64,000 nucleotides of DNA from Rhizodiscina lignyota (taxonomy: Eukaryota), in assembly GCA_010015805.1 (NCBI GenBank), contig ML978123.1, positions 3,038,001-3,102,000 of the forward strand, in the 5' to 3' direction. Positions 1-31,768 of the stretch are shown here, in pieces. Position numbers and translations under genes: made by a program. Positions within the stretch are counted from its first letter, which is position 1. Each line of letters begins with the position of its first letter. The notes beneath the pieces are model-generated. The model saw only the letters and a program-made list of their open reading frames with translations. It made no database searches and was not told the origin of the DNA.

Positions 1-830
1 TGTGTCCTCTACAGGGTCAACTTGCTCGGCTGTCATTTATGTTCAATACATAAGTAGCTTACCATGCGAGGCACAGAAGGAACTCAATGAATCGGAAGGA
101 CTCTAGAATAAAAGGCATCTGCCCTCGGCAGACAAGAGGCTCTACTAAAATCTTGTAGAGTTTAATGCTGTATTACGAGTGTGACATGAAATATGAGAAG
201 GCAATTGGTATATCACTCAGCTTCCGTAAGGAGGCCCACGATGTCCTCAGCTATATTTAATTTGTATTATCGTGCTGGGACGCAAATATGCTTTACATAA
301 TGAAGGTAAAGGTTTTTCTAAATGATACAAGACCGCAGGCACAATTAGAGTGGGAGCCAGCTCTATTAGAACTCTGTCTTGGTCAAGTTCACTTGTAGGT
401 ACAACTTTTGCGGAGAAGGGGAAGGGTCGGTGCGGACCCTTGTCTCGTTCTGGAAAAGTTCGACTGGCGTAGAACATCAGGGCGCATCGCTAGCACAGGA
501 ACAGCACCACACCGTGTCCTGCGTTGTACAACACATTCTCCCCTTCACCTTTCTTTGTTCACGCTGATTGCCCGGTCAGCTGTGGTCGTGGCTGACTGGA
601 TGAATGGTTGCCTTCTCAGTGGCATTCGGGGCTCCTTCAATTTGCCGCTGAGTCTGAGGCTGAGTCTGAAAATTCATTGCCCTCGCACTCACTCGCGCTT
701 TCACTCTCTTCTGCCTTCCATTACCTTCACTGCACTTCGGACAAACAGCCAAAGTACTGTGACAGCACAAAGACACCTCACACCAGCACATTCACCACGT
801 CATTCCTCTTCACGCCCTCTCCTAGCCGCC

Positions 831-3800
831 ATGGATCAAAAGAACGGTGACGCCCGCAGCAAGCGGAAACAACCACCTACATCTCCTTCCTCCGACCGAC
901 CTATGAAGCAGATCCGTGCTTTGGAGCAAGACTCCGACTACACCAACGGCAACTCGCCTGTACATACCAAATATCACGACGGGAACGGGAATGGGGAGCT
1001 TGACATAGAGATGGAGGAGGACCCAAGACTCTCACGTGTCACTACTGCTACGGCAGATACGGCAGAATGGCAGGCGACAATAGAGAAGGTGGTCAAGAAT
1101 GTGGTGTCGATCCACTTCTGCCAGACCTGCTCGTTCGACACTGACTCTGCGCTGTCTTCTGAGGCTACTGGCTTTGTTGTCGACGCGGAGAAGGGCTACA
1201 TTCTCACCAACCGCCACGTGGTAGGTGCAGGACCATTCTGGGGCTACTGTATCTTCGACAACCATGAAGAGTGTGATGTCTGGCCTGTCTACCGCGACCC
1301 TGTCCACGACTTTGGCATTCTCAAGTTCGACCCTAAGGCAATCAAGTACATGCCCCTTGCGGCGCTGGAATTGAGGCCAGACCTCGCACGTGTGGGTGCA
1401 GAAATCAGAGTGGTTGGAAACGACGCAGGCGAGAAGCTGAGCATCTTGTCTGGCGTGATCAGCCGCTTGGACCGCAATGCGCCAGAGTATGGAGAGGGCT
1501 ACAGTGACTTCAATACGAACTACATCCAGGCTGCTGCTGCGGCGAGTGGTGGTAGCTCCGGCAGTCCTGTCATCAACATTGATGGCTACGCTGTCGCTCT
1601 TCAGGCAGGTGGCAGAGCAGATGGAGCTGCAACTGATTTCTTCCTTCCTCTCGATCGACCCCTTCGCGCCCTGCAGTGCGTCCAACGCGACGAGCCAGTA
1701 CCTCGAGGAACGATACAAACACAGTGGATACTGAAGCCTTTCGACGAGTGCCGACGATTGGGCTTGACAAGCGATTCAGAGGCGGCTTTGCGTGAGGCTT
1801 TTCCGAAAGAGACAGGGATGCTCGTGGCAGAGGTGGTATTGCCCAATGGCCCCGGAGACAAGAAGCTTGAAGAAGGAGATCTGCTCATAAAGGTCAACGG
1901 CGAGCTGCTTACGCAGTTCATTCGTCTTGATGAGATCTTGGATTCAAGTGTTGGCAAGAAGGTGCAATTGCTGATCCAGCGCGGTGGTGAGAATATGGAC
2001 CTTGAACTGGATGTGGGAGATCTTCATGCAATCACTCCGGATCGATTCGTGTCTGTCGCTGGAGCTGCATTCCATGACCTGTCCTATCAGCAGGCCAGGC
2101 TATATGCCATCTCAACGAAGGGCAATGGTGTCTTTGTCTGCGAGTCGGCAGGCTCTTTCCGATTCGAAGGCAGCTACTCAGGTTGGCTCATTCAGTCTGT
2201 AGATAACAAAGAGACTCCAGATCTGGACACATTCGTGGAAGTCATGAAGGGCATACCCGATAGAGCGCGAGTTGTGGTTGGCTACAAGCACCTTCGCGAC
2301 CTTCATACTCTGAACACCAGCATCATCACAATCGATCGCCACTGGAGCGCGAAGATGCGATTGGCAATGCGAAATGACGCCACGGGACTGTGGGACTTTA
2401 CAGACATTGCTGATGCTCTTCCTCCGGTACCACCTGTCCCTCGCAGAGCCAATTTCATCAAGATGGACAATGCGAAGTATCCCAAGGCTGTCGATATTGT
2501 CCGCAGCTTTGTCAGGATTACGGCAACGATGCCCGTGAAGCTCGATGGGTTTCCAAGAGGACGCAAGACTGGACACGGACTTGTACTGGATGCCGACAAG
2601 GGCTTGGTTATCATCTCGAGAGCTACTGTCCCGTACGATTTGTGCGACATCTCCCTGACGTTCGCCAATTCCATCATTGTTGATGGAAAAGTCGTTTTCA
2701 TGCATCCGATTCAAAACTATGCCATCATCTCCTACGATCCATCCCTTGTCAATGCCCCAGTCCAGAGCGCTAAACTCTCCACAACACCTATCAAACAAGG
2801 AGAGGAGACCATCTTCTTTGGCTTCAACCAGAATTACCGTCCGGTTGTGGCAAAGACTGTCGTTACGGACATTACCACAGTCGCTATTCCCGCCAGCGCA
2901 TCAACGCCGCGCTACCGTGCGATCAATCTCGATGCTGTCACCGTCGACACGAACTTGGCTTCACAATGCGGCAGCGGCGTCTTAATCGCTGAGGATGGTA
3001 CGGTCCAAGCACTCTGGCTGACTTACTTGGGCGAGCGCCATTCTCACAGCGGCAAAGACATGGAGTATCATCTTGGTCTACTCACCCCAATGGTACTGCC
3101 TGTATTTAATCAGATTCTTGGTGGTGTCATGCCAAAGCTGCGCTTCCTCAACGTCGAGATGCATACGGTTCAAATGAGCCAAGCCCGCATCATGGGCGTT
3201 GAAGAAGAGTGGATCGAACGTGTCGAGAAGGAGGATCCGGAGCGGCATCAGCTCTTCATGATCCGCAAGATTGATTCTGGCCATAATGACGGCCTGCAGG
3301 AGAGCGATATCATCTTGACGCTCAATGACAAGCTCGTCACGCGTGTGTCTGATCTCGACATCCAGTACGACAATGAGTCGCTTGACGCAGTTATTGTCCG
3401 CAAGCGTGAGCAGATCCGCATCAAGATCCCCACTGTCCCCACGGAGGATCTCGAGACGGATCGCGTCGTTATGTTCTGCGGTGCCATGCTTCACCGTCCG
3501 CATCACGCAGTGAGGCAGCAGATCAGCAAGGTGCACTCTGATGTCTACATCTCCGGACGAGTAAGTCTTTTCCCCCTTTCTCTTATCGCAAAGTTTTAAT
3601 ACGTGAAACAGATGCGCGGCTCACCATCCTACGCCTACGGCCTCGCGCCCACTAACTTCATCACCCACGTCAACGGCCGCTCGACGCCCGATCTCGACAC
3701 TTTCCTTGAAGAGACTCACAAGATCCCCGATAACACGTATTTCCGTCTTAAGGTCATGACGTTCGATAATGTTCCGTGGGTAGCCACGATGAAGAAGAAC

Positions 3801-6096: not shown

Positions 6097-9000
6097 CTAA
6101 ATGGACGTATCTATCTGAGCACTGCCAAAGTAAACACCGAATATACTCTACGAGATGTCAATGCTCCTATTTGCTTTTGTATCGTTGATAAGACTCACCA
6201 GCATCGACTGAAACCTTTCAGACATCCCTTCCTTTCCAAAACCACCTCCCGCGAGTTGTAATTTCCTCTGTTGGCGAGATAAAACATTACTCTTGCTAGA
6301 TGTTAGTCTCACAAAGACTTCGACTGCGACACTGCATATTCGAACCTCTTCGATAGTGTTCTCCATGACATATCGCTTTATGATGACTTGATCTGTTTGA
6401 CCGAGTCGCACGGCCCTGCCAATGGCTTGAGACTCAATTGACGGGTTCCACTGCGGTTCCAGGAGGTATATTCGTGACGCAACAGCGAGATTCAATCTGA
6501 TGAAGGTAAGCTAGGAATCTATTACCGCAATGACGAAGTTGCGAACTACGCGAGATTGGATACTGACCCTACTGCACTGGTACCAAGGGTCATAAGCAAT
6601 ATATTCGCGCCTTTGGGGGATCGAAAGTCATCAAGGACCTTTTTGCGCTGTGCCAGCTTCAGTGAGCCATCTATTGAATCGTAACGCAAGCCCCAGTGCC
6701 TAAGAAGTTTACCAACAAGGCTCAGGGTAACTTTCCAACTTGAGAAGACGATGCTGGCAAATTGACCAGTAAGTGATCCTTCGGAAAACATGGAGGGGGG
6801 TACTCACCTCTTTGCAGTATCCTTTAAAAGGTCTGAGACAAGCGCTTGCAATTTCGAGGGGTACTGACCGCGATGAAGACTGCCTTGACAATGGTCCGAC
6901 GACTGAATCTGGGGGTTTTCTAACGACCACGACTCGAATGGCGTCGCTTCATTTCCAGCAGTACAACTCGGACAGCTTTTTTGATCCACAGTAGGATCGG
7001 ACATGCAATTGCGGCAAATTAAGTGGGCGCAAGTCGACATTAGTCTGCCGCCGTCAGTGTCCGCAGAGTTATCGATGGTGTAAACAATGCTGGAACAATA
7101 AGTGCAGATGTTCTGATCAGACTGCTGCAGGTAGCTCAAAAACTCATCAGCATCCATTGGAAGACCATCTGGTCCAATTGCCAGTAAGGATCTTGCGCTC
7201 CCATTGTTGCAAAAGAGACGAAGTTTGAGAAGTGACTCCAACACGGTAGAATTGACTTTGCGGTTGGCATAGCCACTGACTGCCATGTCGATCCTCGTCC
7301 TGCAATTATCCAGCAGATCCTTGTACTCTGCCCATTCAAGATTTGTAAATGGCAGTCGGCGGATTTGTACAGCAGGTTCTGGCAAATGGAGCAACTCTCG
7401 GGTTCTTCGAATGCAGATGGTCTGCAAGAGGGTACGGAGATTTTGGAACCGACCACTCGTATTCGACAAGATTGGATTTGTTATAAACTTTCGAAATGTG
7501 GGTCCGTTCTCAAGTACTGGGACCCTGAGGAATGACACTAGGGCTCCAAGGTCTTCTAAGTCGTTTTGGATGGGAGTGCCGCTCAAGCACCAACGATGCT
7601 TAGCAGAGAGGCTACTGACCGCTTGGAATTGCTTGGTGGAGCTGTTTCGAATATCATGCGCTGGAATAAGTTATAGTCAAGCTTACATTGAACAAGAGCC
7701 CCAGATTGGATACTAACCTTCATCGAGAACTATCCTGAACCAGTTGATCTTTGCCAAGGTGCTGTTTCCTTTGCAGTACTCCGCAGCTACTGTAGCGTAA
7801 GTAGTAAATATTATTACCTTCTCACAAAGCAGATGAGTCTCCGCGTGCCTGCTTTGGCCCAAATGTTTGTGGAACGAAAGGCTTCCGGGATACGTATGCC
7901 TTACAGCCCGTCAGAATGGGGATGCCAGCTACAAAGCGGAAAGAGAACGTACTTGCGAAGTTCGTCCACCCAACTGTCTATCAAGACTACAAAATGGTCA
8001 ACAAGTATGTTAGAGCAGTGGTTCTCTCCTACTTACGCGATGATGGTGCTATCACAAGCGTTGCTCCGGACCGAGTCATTTTCTTCTGGTCCTTCCAGGG
8101 CTGCTGATCTTCAGTGGTCACGAATTCCTTCGCACGATCGAGTGATCCAGATATAGTGGAAATAATGACGAGTGACTTTCCAAGCCCCATTTCATCTGCA
8201 ATGATACCGCTTGGGGCTTCGTCCTGTTGTGGGCGTTTGGCGCCCGTGAACACATGTTGAAAACTTGCCATTGGAGAGTCAGTTTAGAAAGCGAAGATCA
8301 GAAACATAATCTCACAAAGGTTCATCTGCATCAATCTCATTTCTTTTCCAAAGGCTTAATTCTGATGGGAGATTCCCAGTCTCGCGTTGCGTGACAAAAT
8401 CTAGCGCTTCTTTCTGGTGGCTGTCGTGGAAAAAAATGTTATGGAATCGAAGTTGACTATATCAAAATAGCAGAGTGATACAACTTACATGAGCAATTCG
8501 CTTCTAATACGACGGTCAATGAATACGTCTTCGAACGTTGTAACATGGTGCGTGAGGCTATCGAGGATGTTGTCGACAGCCTTAGAAACACTCTCTTGTG
8601 AGACATCTTCTTCGTTTTCATGAGTGGTTGATGAAATCCTTTCCGTAAGCAACTCAGGCTCCCCAATGAGACCCTGCTCCGTGAATTCTCCAATGTGGAG
8701 AAAGTGCGGATTATGGTACTCTGCATTATTGAGGCCGTGGAGAGGGTACTGTAAATAGATGCCGGCTTTCGACAAAATGGAGCCTACTGTTTCAGCAGCA
8801 GCTCGGACCCCATAGAGATTGATCTCTATAGAGATTGAGAGAAGGAAGTAATAACTCTGTGTTTGTGTGGCTTTGAATAGATCTTCACTGCGCACACATG
8901 CCTGAATTCGGACGTTCTGACCGTAGATAATGGAGCCGAGTATCGAGCCGAGGCCCTCTCTCAATCGTGCAAAAGAACGGTTGTTGTGTTGTAATAGAAA

Positions 9001-9319
9001 GGACTCTCCATCTTCTAGCACAGGGAAGCATTGAACACTGTCATCGGTGCCGGAGAGGTACGAGAATAGGCTATCCGATTCTTTGAGTAGTTGTGCGGAT
9101 TCGTCGTCAACCTGAAATGATATTAGATTTACTTCAGAATCTAAGAGGATGACTTACGCAGCCATAGCAGACCATCTCATCGAAACCGACTTCTTGGCTT
9201 TCATTCAGCAGAAAAGAGACTGACAAGGCCGCTGGCCGAGGGCGACGCTGCCCTCCGTCGAATGGGCACGGCCGCTTCAATGATGAATCTACAGCCTCAC
9301 TACCTGTGTTGAAATGCAT
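6097..9319 (-). CDS. SNF2-family helicase/ATPase with RING finger (Rad5/Rad16-like architecture), multi-intron
   Basis: Motif I GIIADEMGLGKS, Ia TLVIAPSS, II WFRIVLDE|AH, III SGTPIQN, RING CTYC..CAHLICRNC..CPSC, IV IVFSSW, V/VI LLEPQWNPSIESQAIGRAVRLGQ. Start and last exon inferred from splice signals. Confidence 0.9.
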
Positions 9320-9595: not shown

Positions 9596-12500
9596 ATGAC
9601 TAGTCAATCTCATGTGACTGTGTTCGAGCGGGTATTGCAGGATTTCAAACGAGGCTTGAAGAAGAGACATCAAGAAAACTTCAAAATGACGACATTAGCC
9701 GACCTTATGGAGAGTATCGGAGAGATACAACGAAAACAACACTCACAAAGACGCCTGAGAAATCTCAACAGGCTGAGTGCTTTTCTCGAGGCAATCGATC
9801 AATACGGAAAGGTAGTCGAAGTATTCGCGAACAGCAGTATTTTTGTGGCGTTCGTCTGGGCAAGTAGATTTATATTATGAATGATAATACGTCGACTGAT
9901 ATCGTTTAGGGTCCAATGAAATTCCTTTTGCAGGTATGGTATCCGTCGTTTTAGTCCTTACAAGGCTGACCAGAGAAGGTTGCAAGCTCACACGTCGAAG
10001 CGTTCACAGAACTGCTCGATGCGTATGAACAGATCGGAGAAAACCTCCCTCTTCTCTCGCAGTATCAAGATCTATTCAAAACCAATTCTCACATGGTCGC
10101 GGTGTTGCCGCTTATGTACGAAGATATCTTGAAGTTCCATAAGGATGCTTTGCATTATTTTGAACAACCAAGTTAGTCAGTGTTTTCATTGTTATCTCAA
10201 AGCTCATATCATGGCTCAAAGCTAATGAATGGCATGAAGTTTGGATGCAATTATTCCAAGCGACGTGGAAGACCTACAAGTCTCGCTTCTCCAGCGTGAT
10301 TTCGAACATGGCAAGACATAAAGAGCTGATAGAGAGTCATGCTAGCGTAGCACAAATCCAAGAAAGCCGTGAGGCACGCCTAGATGAAGAAGCTCGATTT
10401 GAGACTCACCTGAGGAACGAAAATTTACACCGCCGACACGTCGTGTCCGACTGGCTCAAAGCTGCTGATATTGAAGCCGACCAATATGAACATTGCAAGC
10501 TTCGGGCAGGGTATCCCAAGACTGGACGGTGGCTCCTGGAGAATGAAATATTCGCGCATTGGTTCCACCCACGATTTGCTCCCGTCCCTCCCTTACTTTG
10601 GCTATGTGGCGTACCTGGTGCAGGTAGGATACTACCATAGTCTCTGTTACCTCGAAAGTTCCTAATGGCTATACAGGAAAAACAATTCTTGCTTCACTTA
10701 TTGTAGAGGAAGCTGAAAAGCTCAATCCATCGCCCACCGTCTTGTACTTTTACTGCAGGTATGGAAATTCCGAACGGGACAATTTCCTTGCACTTGCCAG
10801 AAGCATATTGGCTCAACTTCTCCGGGAGGACAAAGTCCTGCTGTCGTACCTTTATGAAGAATGCTGTGAAAGTAACGAAACACTTCTGAGGAACCCTGAA
10901 CGGGTTGAAAAGCTCTTACAACTTGCCTTTGAGAACTGCAAAAATGCCTACATAATTCTGGACGGTATAGACGAATGCAACAGGGAACAACGAAAAAGAA
11001 TCACACAGTACTTCCGAAGTCTGGTCGAACATCTGCCTCCCACAGAACCAGACCGGTTGCGATGCCTCTTCATCAGCCAGGACGACGGCTTCGCCCGTAG
11101 GGACTTCTCGGGTCTTGCGAGTTACAAAATCACGATGGAAGACACAAGGAATGATATTGGTGAATTCTGCGAACTCGAAGCTAAGAAGCTTCAAGATCTC
11201 TTTCCACTCACGGACCAGCGGGTATCCGAAATAGCTACTGAAATATCTGATGCCGTAGGAGGTACGTACCTGATCAGAGTCATCTGGGGTGGGCCTGCTC
11301 ATGTACTCATAGGCATGTTTCTTCTTGCGAAGTTGGTCTGGATTAATCTATCCGGTACGACTTCAATGCACGCACTTGAGGAAGAGCTGGAACCAAGTGT
11401 CTTCCCAAAGACGACCAACGAAGCGTGAGTTCATCTTTATCTCGATAACTACTTTCAGTTAATTCGGTCGCAGATATGGAAGGATTATGGCTCGAATAGA
11501 AGAATATCCTTCCATTTCGATGAAAAATGAAGCGTTGACGTTACTAGCTTGGTTTGTTTGCGCAAAGCGACCCTTGAAATGGTATGAAATACAAGGTATG
11601 CGGTCTGTAAACCTTGAGAGTGAGTCTGTAGAATATGAAAAGCGAAAGTTTCGAGTTACGCCAAAAGATCTCTGCCAGTCATTGGTGGAAGAGAGATCAG
11701 ATCGTACCCTCGAACTGGTCCATCTGACAGCACGATTGTAAGTCATTACGACAATGTCCTGACATGCAGAGTTAAGACAGATAATAATAAATGTCCTATC
11801 GCGTAGTTTCCTCATCGAAGAAAATCACCTCGACTTAGCTCAGGAAGAGCTAAAATTGACAACCCTGTGTATCGACTACTTGGATCTACCGGCATTTTTA
11901 GATGCTCCCAACAAAGAGGGTATATGTAATGGCGATTACATATTCATGGATTACGCTGCATTGTATTGGGTCAGGCATCTTGAGGCTGGTCTTGTGGAGG
12001 CCAATAGTGACGAACCACTAATACAAGCGCTTTCAGAGTCCCTTGAAATCTTCATTGAGCGCCACTGGAAATCTGCAGAAAGCAAGTTCGCGTCCTCTCT
12101 GAGGAATACCGAAAGACTCAAGCCATTAAAAGAGCTGCCCTTTTATGGCAAACTTGAGCAAACCGTTCTCTCGATGAGGAAGCAATTAACATATTACGGA
12201 GAGATGAGAGAGTCGGAAATTGCTTTGGATATTTCAGACATCGTCCGAGCTGTTCGCAGTGTCCTGGAAAGCTTGGTATCATCATCACTTCCTGATCCCG
12301 TTCGGAGAGATTTGGAAGAAAAGTATGGGGAAAATTTGTTCAAATGTCCAAGATTCAGTTGCCAGAATTTTACTGTTGGATTCGTTACCTCCCTGGAGCG
12401 ACAGAAGCACATGGCAAAGCACGAAAGGTCTTATCTCTGTCCGAACCAGGCTTGTCCATCGGCCATATTTGGTTTCACTTTGGCTAGGGAACGAGAAAAT

Positions 12501-13127
12501 CACATTAAGAAGACACACCCTACGGAAACTGAACGAAACCAATCTCTGACGGATCAGGAAGTACATGACAGCGTACCTGGAAGACCCGCCGAACAGGACG
12601 CAATCGAACAAGATCAAGAACTCGAACGGGACATGACAGAACAGACCACGGCCGACGAAGGCACGATCGAGCAAGCCACAACCGAACAACGCTTATTGGA
12701 ACAGAGTAAAATGGAGCTTGTTGAGCCACCGGAGTCGCCACCGGAGATCCAGGAATTGGGCATGTGGCGACGAAAACGAGCGCAACCGACAGAAATTCGA
12801 TGCGACTTCTGTCCCAGGGTCTTTACGAAGAGCTTCAATTTAAAATCGCATCTTCGAACCCATTCAGACAATCGACCATTCAGCTGCGATGAATGCGAAA
12901 AACACTTCGCTCGCAAAAGCGATCTTGTCCGCCACGAGGCCACACATACTGGGGAAAAGCGTCATGTGTGCCATGGCATACTGAGTGATGGAACACCATG
13001 GGGTTGCGGGAAGTCATTTGCTCGTGCAGATATCTTGGCCAGTCACCATAAATCTGACTCTGGTCGGGCTTGTTTCGAGCCTCTTCTCCAAGAGCGGGAA
13101 CAGGAGTCAGTTGTTCAGCAGCGCTAA
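9596..13127 (+). CDS. Fungal STAND/NACHT NLR-like protein with N-terminal helical domain and five C-terminal C2H2 zinc fingers, multi-intron
   Basis: N-terminal FVAFVW|GPMKFLLQ signature. Walker A LLWLCGVPGAG|KT split by an intron. Walker B YIILDGIDEC. GMFLLAKL, WFVCAKRPL, FMDYAALYWVRHL. Five C2H2 fingers. Confidence 0.9.
12591..12704 (+). repeat. Degenerate 15-bp coding minisatellite (EQxxx pentapeptide repeats) inside the NACHT-ZnF gene
   Basis: Units gaacaggacgcaatc, gaacgggacatgaca, gaacagaccacggcc, gagcaagccacaacc, gaacaacgcttattg. Confidence 0.6.
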
Positions 13128-28822: not shown

Positions 28823-31768
28823 TTACATTGTGGAGTCGGGAGAAGGCCGTATCTCAAGCTCCGCCTGTCCGGATCCATATTTCTCCATATACTCGGGCAG
28901 TGTGAGAGCACCCCAACCTGTCGGAGAAGTCGAGTCCTTGAACATCATTATAGTTGGATGATATAGTTCATCCTTCTGAATCGTCGCGATCTTCGGTTCT
29001 TTCCCCTTGCTGAAGCCCTCAATCTTGAAGAACACGCCATCCTCGATCTTCATTAGAGCATTGCAGAAAGCTTCAAGGGTTAGCGTGCTCTCGCCGTTGA
29101 CCTTTGTAACCGAGACGAGTTTGTTAAGTCCGTACAAGGCTGCCGGGCTCCCAAGGTTCCAATACGATATGTAAACTTCTGAGAATATTTCCGACCCGGT
29201 TTGTCGCTTGGAGTATGGCGGTCTATGAACGTAGAGCCCGCACGTATAGAGGATTTGGGAAGTCTCGATATCGTCCGTGCGAGAGGTGGAGACCTTTTGG
29301 GTGAGCTCTTTACCCTTGCGCACGATCCGAGCATCGTGAGATGGCCCAAAGAACTGCACGTCCAACTGCACTGCGCGTGTGACGATATTGCCGTTTAACG
29401 TTAACAGGATGTCGCCGTCCTCCAGCGGGCCGGTGTATCCAGCGTTGACCTTGCTGACTTGGAATAGATGTGGATGGTCTGGGTCTTCCGCTCCGACTCG
29501 TGCGATCCAATCTGTATTTTCGTTAGCGACATTGGCGAGATCTATTCAGAAGACGTGTTACCTCTGGAAACACCAAGATCTGCGGCCTTTGCGAGCTCAA
29601 GTGTCTCAAACTGCACATCTATGACCTGCAAGTTGCTGAAGTCGCCCATTCGTATCCTGTCCAAAATCGGGAGAAGCTGAACGGTCATCAGGCCGTCATT
29701 TGATTCCGGATAAATGATCCAATTGGCCTTGACAGATCCATCTGCTGAAGCCAGAAGTCCGTTTTTGGTGACGTTCGTGTTGACTTCAACGATGTCAATA
29801 TTCATTGATCTGAAAGACGCTTGGGTGGTCTCTGTGAGTACCACGACAGTCTCTTCGATATAGGACTTGGCGCCTTTTTCCATGCGCAGGAAGTATGCCT
29901 TTTCGCCTTGCGTAACCGGTGCCCCCGAGAATTTGATGGCTCGAACGGACCCGTCCACGAGCGCCGCATCGTACTGCAGAAGGATGCAATTCAAGAGCGG
30001 GTGGATATACCTGACGGTCGCATTGATCTTCAGAGAGGCGCCGACAATGAGAGTGACATGGCAGCGGTTGTGAGGAACCGTGTCTCTCGAAACCAGGACA
30101 TAGCCCTTCTTGTCATCCACAACCATCCCGAAGCCGTCTTTCCAACCTTCGTCATTGTCACTAAAGCAAGTTGGGATATACGTTTCGACTTGAACTAAAC
30201 CAGCTTGGAGTCGCGTAATCGCCTCCGGAATCGAGGGATTTTTCCTGATCGCCATCGTGGCCACACTGCGACTCTGAGGTTCGGCTGGGAGGAAGTCCGA
30301 AATCTTCTCGAACTGCCACAATCCTGTGTTATCGTTACGCTCGCCGATGCTCATTGCCTTCCACTGGCGATCAATCATTGCGATCTCCGTCTTCTCTAAA
30401 TGGAGGTTGGTGAGGCTCCTATATTTGACCTGGGCTCTATGCTGGTCTGCTTCGTGTTAGGTACGACTTCGTTGTTGAGAACATTCTGCTCACCTCTCTT
30501 TGAACGGATGACCCTTATGAATGTGTCCAAGTCGGGTGTTTCTTCGTCATCAACCGACAGAATTAGCGGATCGCCGCTTGAGAGCTTTACAGTTCCACAT
30601 CCACCACTAAACAGGACACCTTTCACTGGAACGCCGTACTCAAGAGCTTTGATATACGGAAGTTCGTGAAAAGACCATCCTCCGAAACAAAATACTCTCG
30701 TCGGGGAAATGTCCGCAAAGTCTTGCACCTTGATGCTGCACGACATTTCTTTTCCGTTGCGCGAAAAGAGAATATCCAGCTCATCCCCAATATGATTGTC
30801 CATGAGCTCGTTCAATGCTGAAAATTGAACGATCGGTTTGCCGTTAATGCGGAGCAAGATGTCTCCGGCCTCTAGATGTCCGGAGGCAGGTCCATCTTTG
30901 AGCACCTTTTCGGCGATGAGCATGCTGACCTCGTCTGGGAAGGCGGATTGGATAGCTTTCTTCGATGACGATTCAAGTCCGAGTCTGCGGCACTCTTCGA
31001 ATGACTTAATGAGCCACTGAGTCTGCAAGGTTCCTCGGCGGACGACATTCCCAGTGAGGATAGTATGCAAAATATGGGCAATGCGATCAAGTGGCACAAA
31101 ATAGTTGATGTTGGCAAGTAAATACCCTGAAGCCATAAGGCCAACTACATGCCCATCAAGAGTGACAACAGGACTTCCTGAGCTGCCACTCTTGGCGCCG
31201 GCTGCTGCCTGGATCATGTTGGTATTGGGGTAACTGCTATTCGAGTTCTTGTCGAGCCTGGAAATGACGCCCTTGGATATACTGAGTTCCGAATCATAGT
31301 CGTTGCCGATGACGCATATCTCGACACCAACACGAGCCTCTTCCGGTTTGAGCTGCAGTCCGGTAAGGTCATGAGATTCTGCGAACTTCGGACAGACTCG
31401 CAGAATCCCAAAATCATGTTCAGGATCGCGGTATATAGGGAACACATCTGCCTGTATATGTGTTAGCCCTCCGACAAAAGGCACAAATGATAAATCTTGG
31501 ACATACTTCTTTCTTGTCCCAGAAGGTGCAGCGACCTCGAAAGCCGCCGGACCCCACGATGTGCTGAGTTCTTGTCAGTAACCAAGAGGTATAAGATCGC
31601 GAACTCAACACTGACCTTGTTTGTCAAGATGTAGCCTCCTTCGACGAGAAACCCAGTCCCGGCAGCGGTATGCACTTCCTCCCCATCCCAAGAGAATGGT
31701 AAGTAGTATCGCAATCGGACAACATGCTTCTTAACCTCTTCGATTGTATCCTGCCACTTGATTTCCAT
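28823..31768 (-). CDS. Divergent second Nma111/HtrA-like serine protease; introns 31564-31615, 31452-31506, 30447-30493, 29512-29561
   Basis: After splicing the frame is continuous. Triad TNK|HIV, EHDFG and AKSGSSGSPV. Collinear similarity with the 831-3965 protein throughout ([34 protein letters not shown]). Confidence 0.9.

Follow-up and report, generated by a model that had tools for sequence, protein, structure and literature searches.

Crz1-like zinc fingers at the C-terminus of a NACHT protein of Rhizodiscina lignyota

A 64,000-nucleotide stretch of the genome of Rhizodiscina lignyota (contig ML978123.1, positions 3,038,001 to 3,102,000; hereafter the window) contains at 9596-13127 on the forward strand the gene NA57DRAFT_35425, whose product matches database protein P0004 (annotated at 1019 amino acids) and is, by its sequence, a NACHT-type member of the signal transduction ATPases with numerous domains (STAND) that is conserved in Pezizomycotina. 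We report that this protein ends in three Cys2His2 (C2H2) zinc fingers that almost certainly descend from the DNA-binding domain of the transcription factor Crz1/CrzA. Only that domain appears to have been captured, without the calcineurin-regulated N-terminal part of Crz1. The architecture has already been catalogued, as a NOD-like receptor (NLR) with C2H2 fingers, and what is new is the Crz1 origin of the C-terminal module. The homology is strongly supported by the sequence comparisons described below, but the family is already catalogued and its function is predicted from sequence, and we therefore regard the case as a good lead rather than a discovery.

Homology of the fingers to Crz1

A first-pass annotation of the window had proposed that the last three fingers of an NLR resemble the DNA-binding domain of Crz1/CrzA. 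The peptide on which it was based is the in-frame translation of 12789-13124 (+), at the end of an open frame that extends from 11763 to 13127, and the proposed kinship is borne out by an ungapped identity of 56-57% and by a shared third finger and tail. In BLASTP comparisons the domain matched the Saccharomyces cerevisiae protein P0314 with 61 identities in 107 positions (57%, no gaps, E value 5e-43) and the Dothideomycete Crz1-like protein SNOG_05002 of Parastagonospora nodorum with 58 in 103 (56%, E value 1e-42). Both alignments were confined to the fingers, the rest of Crz1 remaining unaligned with the window protein. The sequence signatures that had been named for Crz1 (NLRSHLRTH..RPF, WGCG..FARAD and a GR.C..PLL tail) are borne out by the 60% consensus of 162 Crz1-like proteins, which reads ..FTR.YNL.SHLRTHT.ERPF.C..CGKAFARQHDRKRHE.LHSG.K..VC.G.LKDG..WGCG..FAR.DALGRHF.TE.GR.CI.PL.EE.

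The third finger follows C-x11-C-x12-H-x8-C: a loop of 11 residues separates its first two cysteines, and a distal cysteine takes the last position. A phmmer search with this finger and the tail (59 residues) against 1.84 billion representatives returned 808 matches at E<=1e-3, of which 124 reached E<=1e-10. The WGC motif was present in 137 of 149 among the matches listed, mostly inside a Crz1-type three-finger context (FTR.YNL(R/K)SHLRTHT.ERPF ... FARQHDRKRHE ... WGCG..FAR.DALGRHF..E.GR.CI.PL), and K. lactis 'Crz1' (P0242) was itself among the matches of the window's finger 3. A search seeded with another of these matches, S. mikatae P0149, had ten source-named CRZ1/Crz1 proteins, including P0242, among the matches listed, two of them described as 'similar to S. 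cerevisiae YNL027W CRZ1'. The finger domain of P0314 is identical to that of P0149 and 76-86% identical to those of the ten named proteins, and P0314 carries at residue 324 the sequence PIISIQ, which we take to be the calcineurin-docking motif of Crz1. The Pezizomycotina proteins that we call Crz1-like were assigned by their similarity to named yeast Crz1 (about 70% finger identity) and not by their source names. No P.I.I. motif was found in the 1048-residue model of the window protein, a weak test, as the Crz1-like controls P0245 and P0261 were also without a match.

Convergent or generic C2H2 similarity was considered and rejected because the match is ungapped across three fingers and tail and the rare architecture of the third finger is shared. 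In a sequence search of the PDB, the best-scoring stretch of 59 of 60 chains among the matches listed covered fingers 1 and 2 only (query residues 2-62, approximately), the exception being Gfi-1, whose best stretch covers query residues 4-91. Animal poly-finger proteins showed 31-45% identity over 52-83% of the domain. These proteins dominated a word-index search made with the finger domain alone (39 candidates scored), which did not return Crz1. The block did not group with generic C2H2 proteins, and its nearest relatives outside its own family were Crz1-type factors. When Pfam was run on the 112-residue C-terminal piece, zf-C2H2 was called in two stretches (E value 1.5e-14) and finger 3 was not called; Crz1 of Drechslerella is likewise credited with only two fingers in the accessible part of PMC9322116.

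The fingers are fused, as had also been proposed, to a NACHT protein that lacks WD, ankyrin and TPR repeats, no repeat family being found among the Pfam domain calls on the protein. From the N-terminus onwards, a Goodbye-like DUF7708 domain precedes NACHT and a winged helix; a helical region and two extra fingers (the pre-fingers) come next, and an acidic linker and a basic cluster lead to the Crz1-like three fingers (coordinates in Table 2), giving five fingers in all. The N-terminal domain is of a type (DUF7708, Goodbye or NACHT_N) that is found on fungal NLR and STAND proteins; the nearest Atlas clusters, queried with that domain of the orthologue P0023, mix these three names at a score of 0.93, on a scale that is uncalibrated for parts of proteins. 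The Walker motifs (GxPGxGK[TS] and hhhDGxDEC) are intact in the 57 full-length members of the family. The helical region is a candidate sensor or arm region. Its fold matches are weak (a TPR chain with a Z score of 7.0 over 63 residues, in a range common for helical models) and come from a search with the whole last-exon model, whose listings are dominated by finger proteins. In the pre-fingers, seven of the eight zinc ligands (C180, C185, H201, H205, C211, C216 and H232) are invariant and H237 is conserved at >=90% in the 47-row alignment A1; Pfam gives only a weak zf-C2H2_aberr match here (E value 0.027). Across 48 members the net charge of the linker has its median at -15.7 per 100 residues, and the basic cluster precedes finger 1 in 39 of the 48.

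Might the fusion be an artefact, a NACHT gene wrongly merged with a small Crz1-like gene, or else a dead relic of a fusion? The public and the assembled gene models do disagree at two places. The assembled model joins eight exons into a coding sequence of 3147 nucleotides (1048 codons and a stop), with seven introns of 45-69 nucleotides, six of them GT-AG and one GC-AG. Neither of its differences from P0004 lies within the finger block. One is a 24-nucleotide mini-exon (9910-9933, encoding GPMKFLLQ) that follows the GC-AG intron (9860-9909) and is absent from P0004; orthologues carry WGP.K.LLQ at this position, which supports the mini-exon and makes the annotation of P0004 probably wrong there. 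The other is a stretch of 72 nucleotides (12573-12644) that P0004 cuts out as an intron. It begins with GT, ends with AG, is in frame and encodes 24 residues of the acidic linker; the reading frame stays open across it, and the assembled model retains it. Run X1, for which no record as RNA exists, yielded one contig that is unspliced and matches the window exactly, and its source was probably DNA. Against a mis-merger, the last exon (11807-13127) falls in the 454-codon uninterrupted open frame 11763-13127 (+), and this one frame encodes the conserved post-NACHT helical region, the pre-fingers and the Crz1-like fingers. Moreover, the same layout recurs in 57 full-length independent gene predictions, and conserved zinc ligands and contact residues are inconsistent with decay. 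A mis-merged gene is thus very unlikely, and we give the artefact as a whole so little weight that it can nearly be dismissed.

Family and evolutionary origin of the fused fingers

With the C-terminal 420 residues of P0004 as query, the matches listed included many fungal proteins of about 950-1050 amino acids that share one Pfam set (DUF7708, NPHP3_N/NACHT and zf-C2H2). Named members come from Bathelium, Mytilinidion, Lophium, Amniculicola, Lophiostoma and Neocucurbitaria, which we take to be Dothideomycetes; from many Xylariales and from Fusarium, Trichoderma, Apiospora, Pestalotiopsis, Chaetomium and Stachybotrys, which we take to be Sordariomycetes; and from Aspergillus terreus and Amylocarpus, presumably a Eurotiomycete and a Leotiomycete, respectively. 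Sordariales are represented in the family by, among others, Chaetomium and Diplogelasinospora. One member, P0072, had been automatically named 'Transcriptional regulator CRZ1'. Homology to the NACHT and winged-helix part of P0004 was found in 62 stored proteins, 57 of them 900-1100 residues long, and the complete Crz1-like three-finger pattern was present in 48 of these 57 full-length members. Averaged over the other 56 full-length members, identity to P0004 was 42% in the N-terminal domain, 60% in NACHT, 55% in the winged helix, 47% in the helical region, 41% in the pre-fingers, 19% in the linker and 50% in the Crz1-like fingers. The family is old, well kept and low in copy number. The low copy number agrees with a survey of 82 Sordariales genomes (PLoS Genet 2025, PMC12258605), which, in the accessible part of its text, counts 34 NLRs with C2H2 fingers out of 4,613. 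The fingers are mostly located at the C-terminus, one example having three in tandem, and are discussed there as possible sensor domains.

The third finger varies within the family. In four Xylariales paralogues (P0102, P0132, P0103 and P0134) its loop is reduced to a plain C-x2-C (..CRGCGK.FARAD..), so that the Crz1-type loop can evidently be lost, and P0117 and P0087 have related shortened forms. In a NACHT-type subfamily represented by P0142 and P0143, a second long-loop WGC finger follows finger 3, giving four C-terminal fingers.

For a comparison of the finger domains across families, three-finger domains were extracted with a regular expression and a W.C filter, yielding 253 domains, 65 of NACHT type and 188 others. 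A maximum-likelihood tree was built from 99 non-redundant finger domains; its root is undefined and many of its forks are unresolved because the alignment has so few columns (101). Fifty-nine rows, all of NACHT type and the window's among them, lie behind one branch (bootstrap 96, Shimodaira-Hasegawa-like approximate likelihood ratio 96), and this 96/96 branch sets the window row apart from all 31 Crz1-like rows. The other nine NACHT-type rows fall among or beside the 31 Crz1-like rows; these are fragments from the C-terminal end, with the helical region and pre-fingers of the family. Constraining all 68 NACHT-type rows to one clade gave a slightly better likelihood and was not rejected (P = 0.68 in the approximately unbiased test), a result compatible with a single capture event. 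By this tree the window protein is no orthologue of Crz1/CrzA but belongs to a sister lineage that is derived.

The least diverged of the fused fingers, those of P0286 and P0277, share 77-78% identity with P0378, a Crz1-like protein of a Dothideomycete, but only 61-62% with Saccharomyces. The 90%-identity cluster of P0286 also holds a full-length Trichoderma viride protein, P0407 (952 residues), which carries DUF7708, NPHP3_N/NACHT and fingers and aligns to P0004 over both halves (40% and 35%). At least two NACHT subfamilies thus possess Crz1-derived fingers. The fused form turns up only in species named as Pezizomycotina and Crz1 is far more widely spread, from which we infer that fusion is the derived state; most probably the fused form arose from a CrzA of the Pezizomycotina type.

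Predicted DNA binding and possible functions

We compared the residues at the contact positions -1, +2, +3 and +6 of each finger between 48 NACHT-type members and 162 Crz1-like proteins (Table 1). To the first-pass annotation the recognition-helix residues had appeared diverged from Crz1. That is so at position +2 of finger 2 and at positions +3 and +6 of finger 3, but the divergence was overstated, as seven of the twelve contacts of the window protein are identical to those of Crz1 and two more are conservative replacements. The contact positions held in common with Crz1 are those that are kept within the NACHT family.

Table 1. Residues at contact positions -1, +2, +3 and +6 of the three Crz1-like fingers (numbers are the percentage of proteins with that residue)
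Finger	Window protein	NACHT family	Crz1-like proteins
1	K F N S	K81 Y56 N97 S97	R99 Y98 N98 S98
2	R S D R	R97 S62 D97 R100	R99 H96 D98 R98
3	R D I S	R100 D85 T79 K39 (variable)	R99 D99 A98 R98

In the C2H2 recognition code an arginine at -1 or +6 reads G, an aspartate at +3 reads C and an asparagine at +3 reads A, and the consensus of the calcineurin-dependent response element (CDRE) is GNGGC(G/T)CA. By these general rules the contact pattern of Crz1 would fit the CDRE. Since fingers 1 and 2 keep their contacts and finger 3 keeps half of its own, the window fingers would be expected to read a CDRE-like core, approximately G-GC(G/T)-nA, with the 5' G lost. (The element is quoted as GAGGCTG in the accessible part of PMC11868491.) An AlphaFold2 model of the last exon, built on a 47-row alignment, had a mean predicted local distance difference test score (pLDDT) of 83.3, with values of 86-97 in the fingers. 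The finger model superposes on the DNA-bound ZBTB20 array (Z score 8.0, root-mean-square deviation 3.5 over 84 residues, model residues 329-427) and gave a template modelling score of 0.65 against DNA-bound, three-finger Gfi-1. We consider it likely that this module still works and binds DNA in a sequence-specific manner. Judged by sequence and fold, one chain thus combines an NTPase switch with a predicted DNA-binding domain.

How might the two work together? We propose that, in the manner of bacterial STAND regulators like MalT, the nucleotide switch of the NACHT domain would control oligomerization and, through it, DNA occupancy or output; that the acidic linker would provide an activation region and the basic cluster would signal nuclear import; and that the Crz1-derived fingers would direct the protein to CDRE-like sites. 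On this view the protein would act at Crz1-like sites as an NTPase-gated regulator that does not depend on calcineurin. To this mechanism as a whole we give somewhat less than even weight. The broader idea that it is a NACHT-gated transcription factor, a eukaryotic counterpart of the MalT type through which filamentous ascomycetes would feed a second, nucleotide-switch-controlled signal into the Crz1 regulon or else restrain it, is speculative, and we hold it to be doubtful.

Several observations weigh against a regulator at CDRE-like sites. Three contacts are unlike those of Crz1 (at +2 of finger 2, serine in place of histidine; at +3 of finger 3, isoleucine in place of alanine; at +6 of finger 3, serine in place of arginine) and the last of these positions varies within the family, which makes the target site uncertain; the predicted site itself comes from general C2H2 rules and not from measurement. 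CDRE-like words (GNGGCKCA) numbered 14 in the window as compared with 18.8 expected, and hence were not enriched, and none was found in the NACHT gene's own promoter. The window domain has a median identity of 52% to the NACHT-type domains (n=64) and 54% to the Crz1-like ones (n=188); being no closer to its own family, it indicates that the fused fingers evolve faster than those of Crz1. The invariance of the zinc ligands is partly a matter of construction, as the sets were selected by regular expression, and 17 of the 82 stored NACHT-type proteins failed that expression (five truncated or disrupted, four Xylariales proteins with a shortened finger-3 loop, the rest varying in finger spacing). 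Finally, an N-terminus of the Goodbye/NACHT_N type would suit a receptor of the immune type, with sensing at the C-terminus and execution at the N-terminus.

This last point leads to the main rival view, in which the protein is an NLR that senses nucleic acid: the five fingers would bind foreign, damaged or misplaced DNA or RNA, whereupon the NACHT domain would be released and the Goodbye-like N-terminus would act as effector. DNA binding would then be the input rather than the output, and the effector logic would be that of canonical fungal NLRs. DUF7708 closely resembles the Goodbye and NACHT_N domains that fungal STAND proteins carry, the fingers occupy the place where NLRs normally have sensor repeats, and the conserved base contacts would fit a sensor as well as a regulator. 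Zinc fingers have also been proposed as sensors of Sordariales NLRs (PMC12258605, accessible part). On the other hand, a mean NACHT identity of 60% across four classes and a low copy number are unlike fast-diversifying recognition receptors, and so is the rarity of C2H2 fingers in that survey (34 of 4,613 NLRs in 82 genomes). Moreover, a domain of the Crz1 type reads a short motif that is common in the host and would be a poor signal of non-self, and the acidic linker and basic cluster resemble features of transcription factors. We consider a sensor of this kind unlikely.

A third possibility is that the fingers are an integrated decoy, mimicking the DNA-binding domain of Crz1. The NACHT receptor would thereby trap any toxin, effector or viral protein directed against Crz1, much as the WRKY domain does in plant RRS1. 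The fingers are truly homologous to those of a central stress regulator outside the NLR family, and one subfamily retains fingers that are about 78% identical to those of Pezizomycotina Crz1-like proteins. Integrated decoys have already been proposed for fungal NLRs in the accessible part of PMC12258605. However, with an identity of only 52-57% to Crz1-type fingers and three differing contacts, the window fingers are a poor mimic, and the regulated parts of Crz1 (calcineurin docking and phosphorylation sites) were not captured. Nor does a partner NLR adjoin the gene, whose divergent neighbour encodes a SNF2-family helicase, and full-text literature searches yielded no paper tying Crz1 to a fungal NLR. 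A decoy of the plant style therefore seems less likely, and we rate the decoy in general as rather improbable. The conserved contacts, the old, low-copy family and the lack of an adjacent NLR lean instead to DNA binding over a paired decoy.

Whichever role applies, the module offers a concrete handle. To our knowledge, most fungal NLR-like proteins have neither a known ligand nor a known output. Here the C-terminal module is a well-understood DNA-binding domain, and for its ancestor, Crz1, the motif and the targets are known and assays are established. If the fingers do bind CDRE-like DNA, three questions would become testable: whether a eukaryotic NACHT switch gates DNA binding, how the family relates to calcium and stress signaling, and whether the 'integrated domains' of fungal NLRs are baits or working modules. 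If, instead, the domain is a bait, it would indicate that Crz1 is a target of fungal antagonists.

The locus and comparison with known systems

The features of the gene are collected in Table 2. Head-to-head with it, across an intergenic region of 440 bp, lies a gene for a SNF2-related helicase (6807-9153, -), whose frame includes a cysteine-rich, RING-like stretch. The 34 long open reading frames of the window include no further NACHT gene and no NB-ARC gene, and the remainder of the window holds ordinary metabolic and transport genes. The window also contains two genes for Nma111/HtrA-like serine proteases with Trypsin_2 and PDZ domains (399-3596, +; 28826-31574, -). Farther along, a gene for a Zn2Cys6 transcription factor adjoins genes for a flavin adenine dinucleotide monooxygenase and a cytochrome P450 (48408-50843, +; 51794-53191, +; 55578-57071, -); the three may belong to one small metabolic cluster that has no connection with the NACHT-finger gene.

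Table 2. Features of the NACHT-finger gene (positions in the window)
Feature	Position	Strand	Evidence
Eight exons	9596-9859, 9910-9933, 9979-10171, 10240-10623, 10677-11261, 11313-11424, 11474-11737, 11807-13127	+	In-frame joining
DUF7708 domain, N-terminal, exons 1-4	9773..10361	+	Pfam PF24809, E value 1e-13 on P0004
NACHT / NPHP3_N NTPase	10521..11077	+	Pfam NPHP3_N, E value 2.8e-31, and NACHT, E value 2.1e-07 (on P0004)
Walker A, GVPGAGKT, split by an intron	10608-10684	+	Motif
Walker B, IILDGIDEC	10952-10978	+	Motif
Winged helix (GPIID_WHD-like), after the NTPase	11526..11825	+	Pfam PF22939, E value 3e-04, under the curated cut-off
Helical region, winged helix to fingers	11826..12350	+	AlphaFold2, pLDDT mostly 92-98, all-helical
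Pre-finger A, C-x4-C-x15-H-x3-H	12339-12422	+	Ligand conservation
Pre-finger B, C-x4-C-x15-H-x4-H	12432-12518	+	Ligand conservation
Acidic disordered linker	12519-12764	+	pLDDT <50 for residues 259-326 of the exon-8 translation
Basic cluster WRRKRAQ, end of linker	12765-12785	+	Sequence
Crz1-like finger 1, contacts K, F, N, S	12795..12863	+	Pfam zf-C2H2, BLASTP, contact alignment
Crz1-like finger 2, contacts R, S, D, R	12879..12947	+	Pfam zf-C2H2, BLASTP, contact alignment
Crz1-like atypical finger 3 (..DGTPWGCG..), contacts R, D, I, S	12963..13073	+	phmmer, BLASTP; pLDDT 87-97
C-terminal helix/tail (FEPLLQEREQE..) and stop codon	13074..13127	+	PLL..E motif common to Crz1; model helix 417-438

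Full-text literature searches yielded, among the matches listed, no paper that looked to link Crz1 to NACHT or to a fungal NLR, and a literature search for DUF7708 found no paper at all; one text that matched both Crz1 and NLR (PMC11481868) concerns plant NLRs. Of the titles listed on NACHT and C2H2 transcription factors in fungi, PMC12258605 alone seemed pertinent. With Crz1/CrzA itself the window protein shares three fingers, the unusual finger 3 (11-residue loop, WGCG and distal cysteine) and a PL(L/Y)..E tail. It differs in that its fingers fall in a separate clade and in the three contacts discussed above. Moreover, Crz1 is a stand-alone factor of about 400-900 residues, whereas the window protein, at 1048 residues, has the DUF7708-NACHT architecture in place of the serine-rich, calcineurin-docking N-terminus of Crz1. 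The closest precedent in architecture is the group of Sordariales NLRs with C2H2 fingers, which also combine NACHT with three tandem C-terminal C2H2 fingers and lack canonical repeats (PMC12258605). There the domain was catalogued and a role as sensor or decoy suggested; the accessible part of that text makes no mention that we could find of Crz1, of the two extra fingers, of conservation beyond Sordariales or of contact residues.

Among plant proteins, RRS1-R resembles the window protein in having the DNA-binding domain of a stress-response transcription factor (WRKY) at the C-terminus of an NLR-type NTPase. RRS1 has leucine-rich repeats and a head-to-head partner NLR, RPS4, whereas the window protein has neither repeats nor a neighboring NLR and its fusion has been retained across fungal classes. 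Bacterial STAND proteins such as MalT and AfsR are transcription regulators with helix-turn-helix domains, and in animals CIITA and NLRC5 are NLR transactivators that are not DNA binders themselves. The comparison with the MalT type rests on layout, there being no sequence relationship beyond the STAND fold. What these bacterial and animal proteins would share with the window protein is an NTPase switch and a transcription-related output in a single polypeptide, and MalT, in which NTPase, arm, sensor and DNA-binding domain follow one another, has the very order that we propose here.

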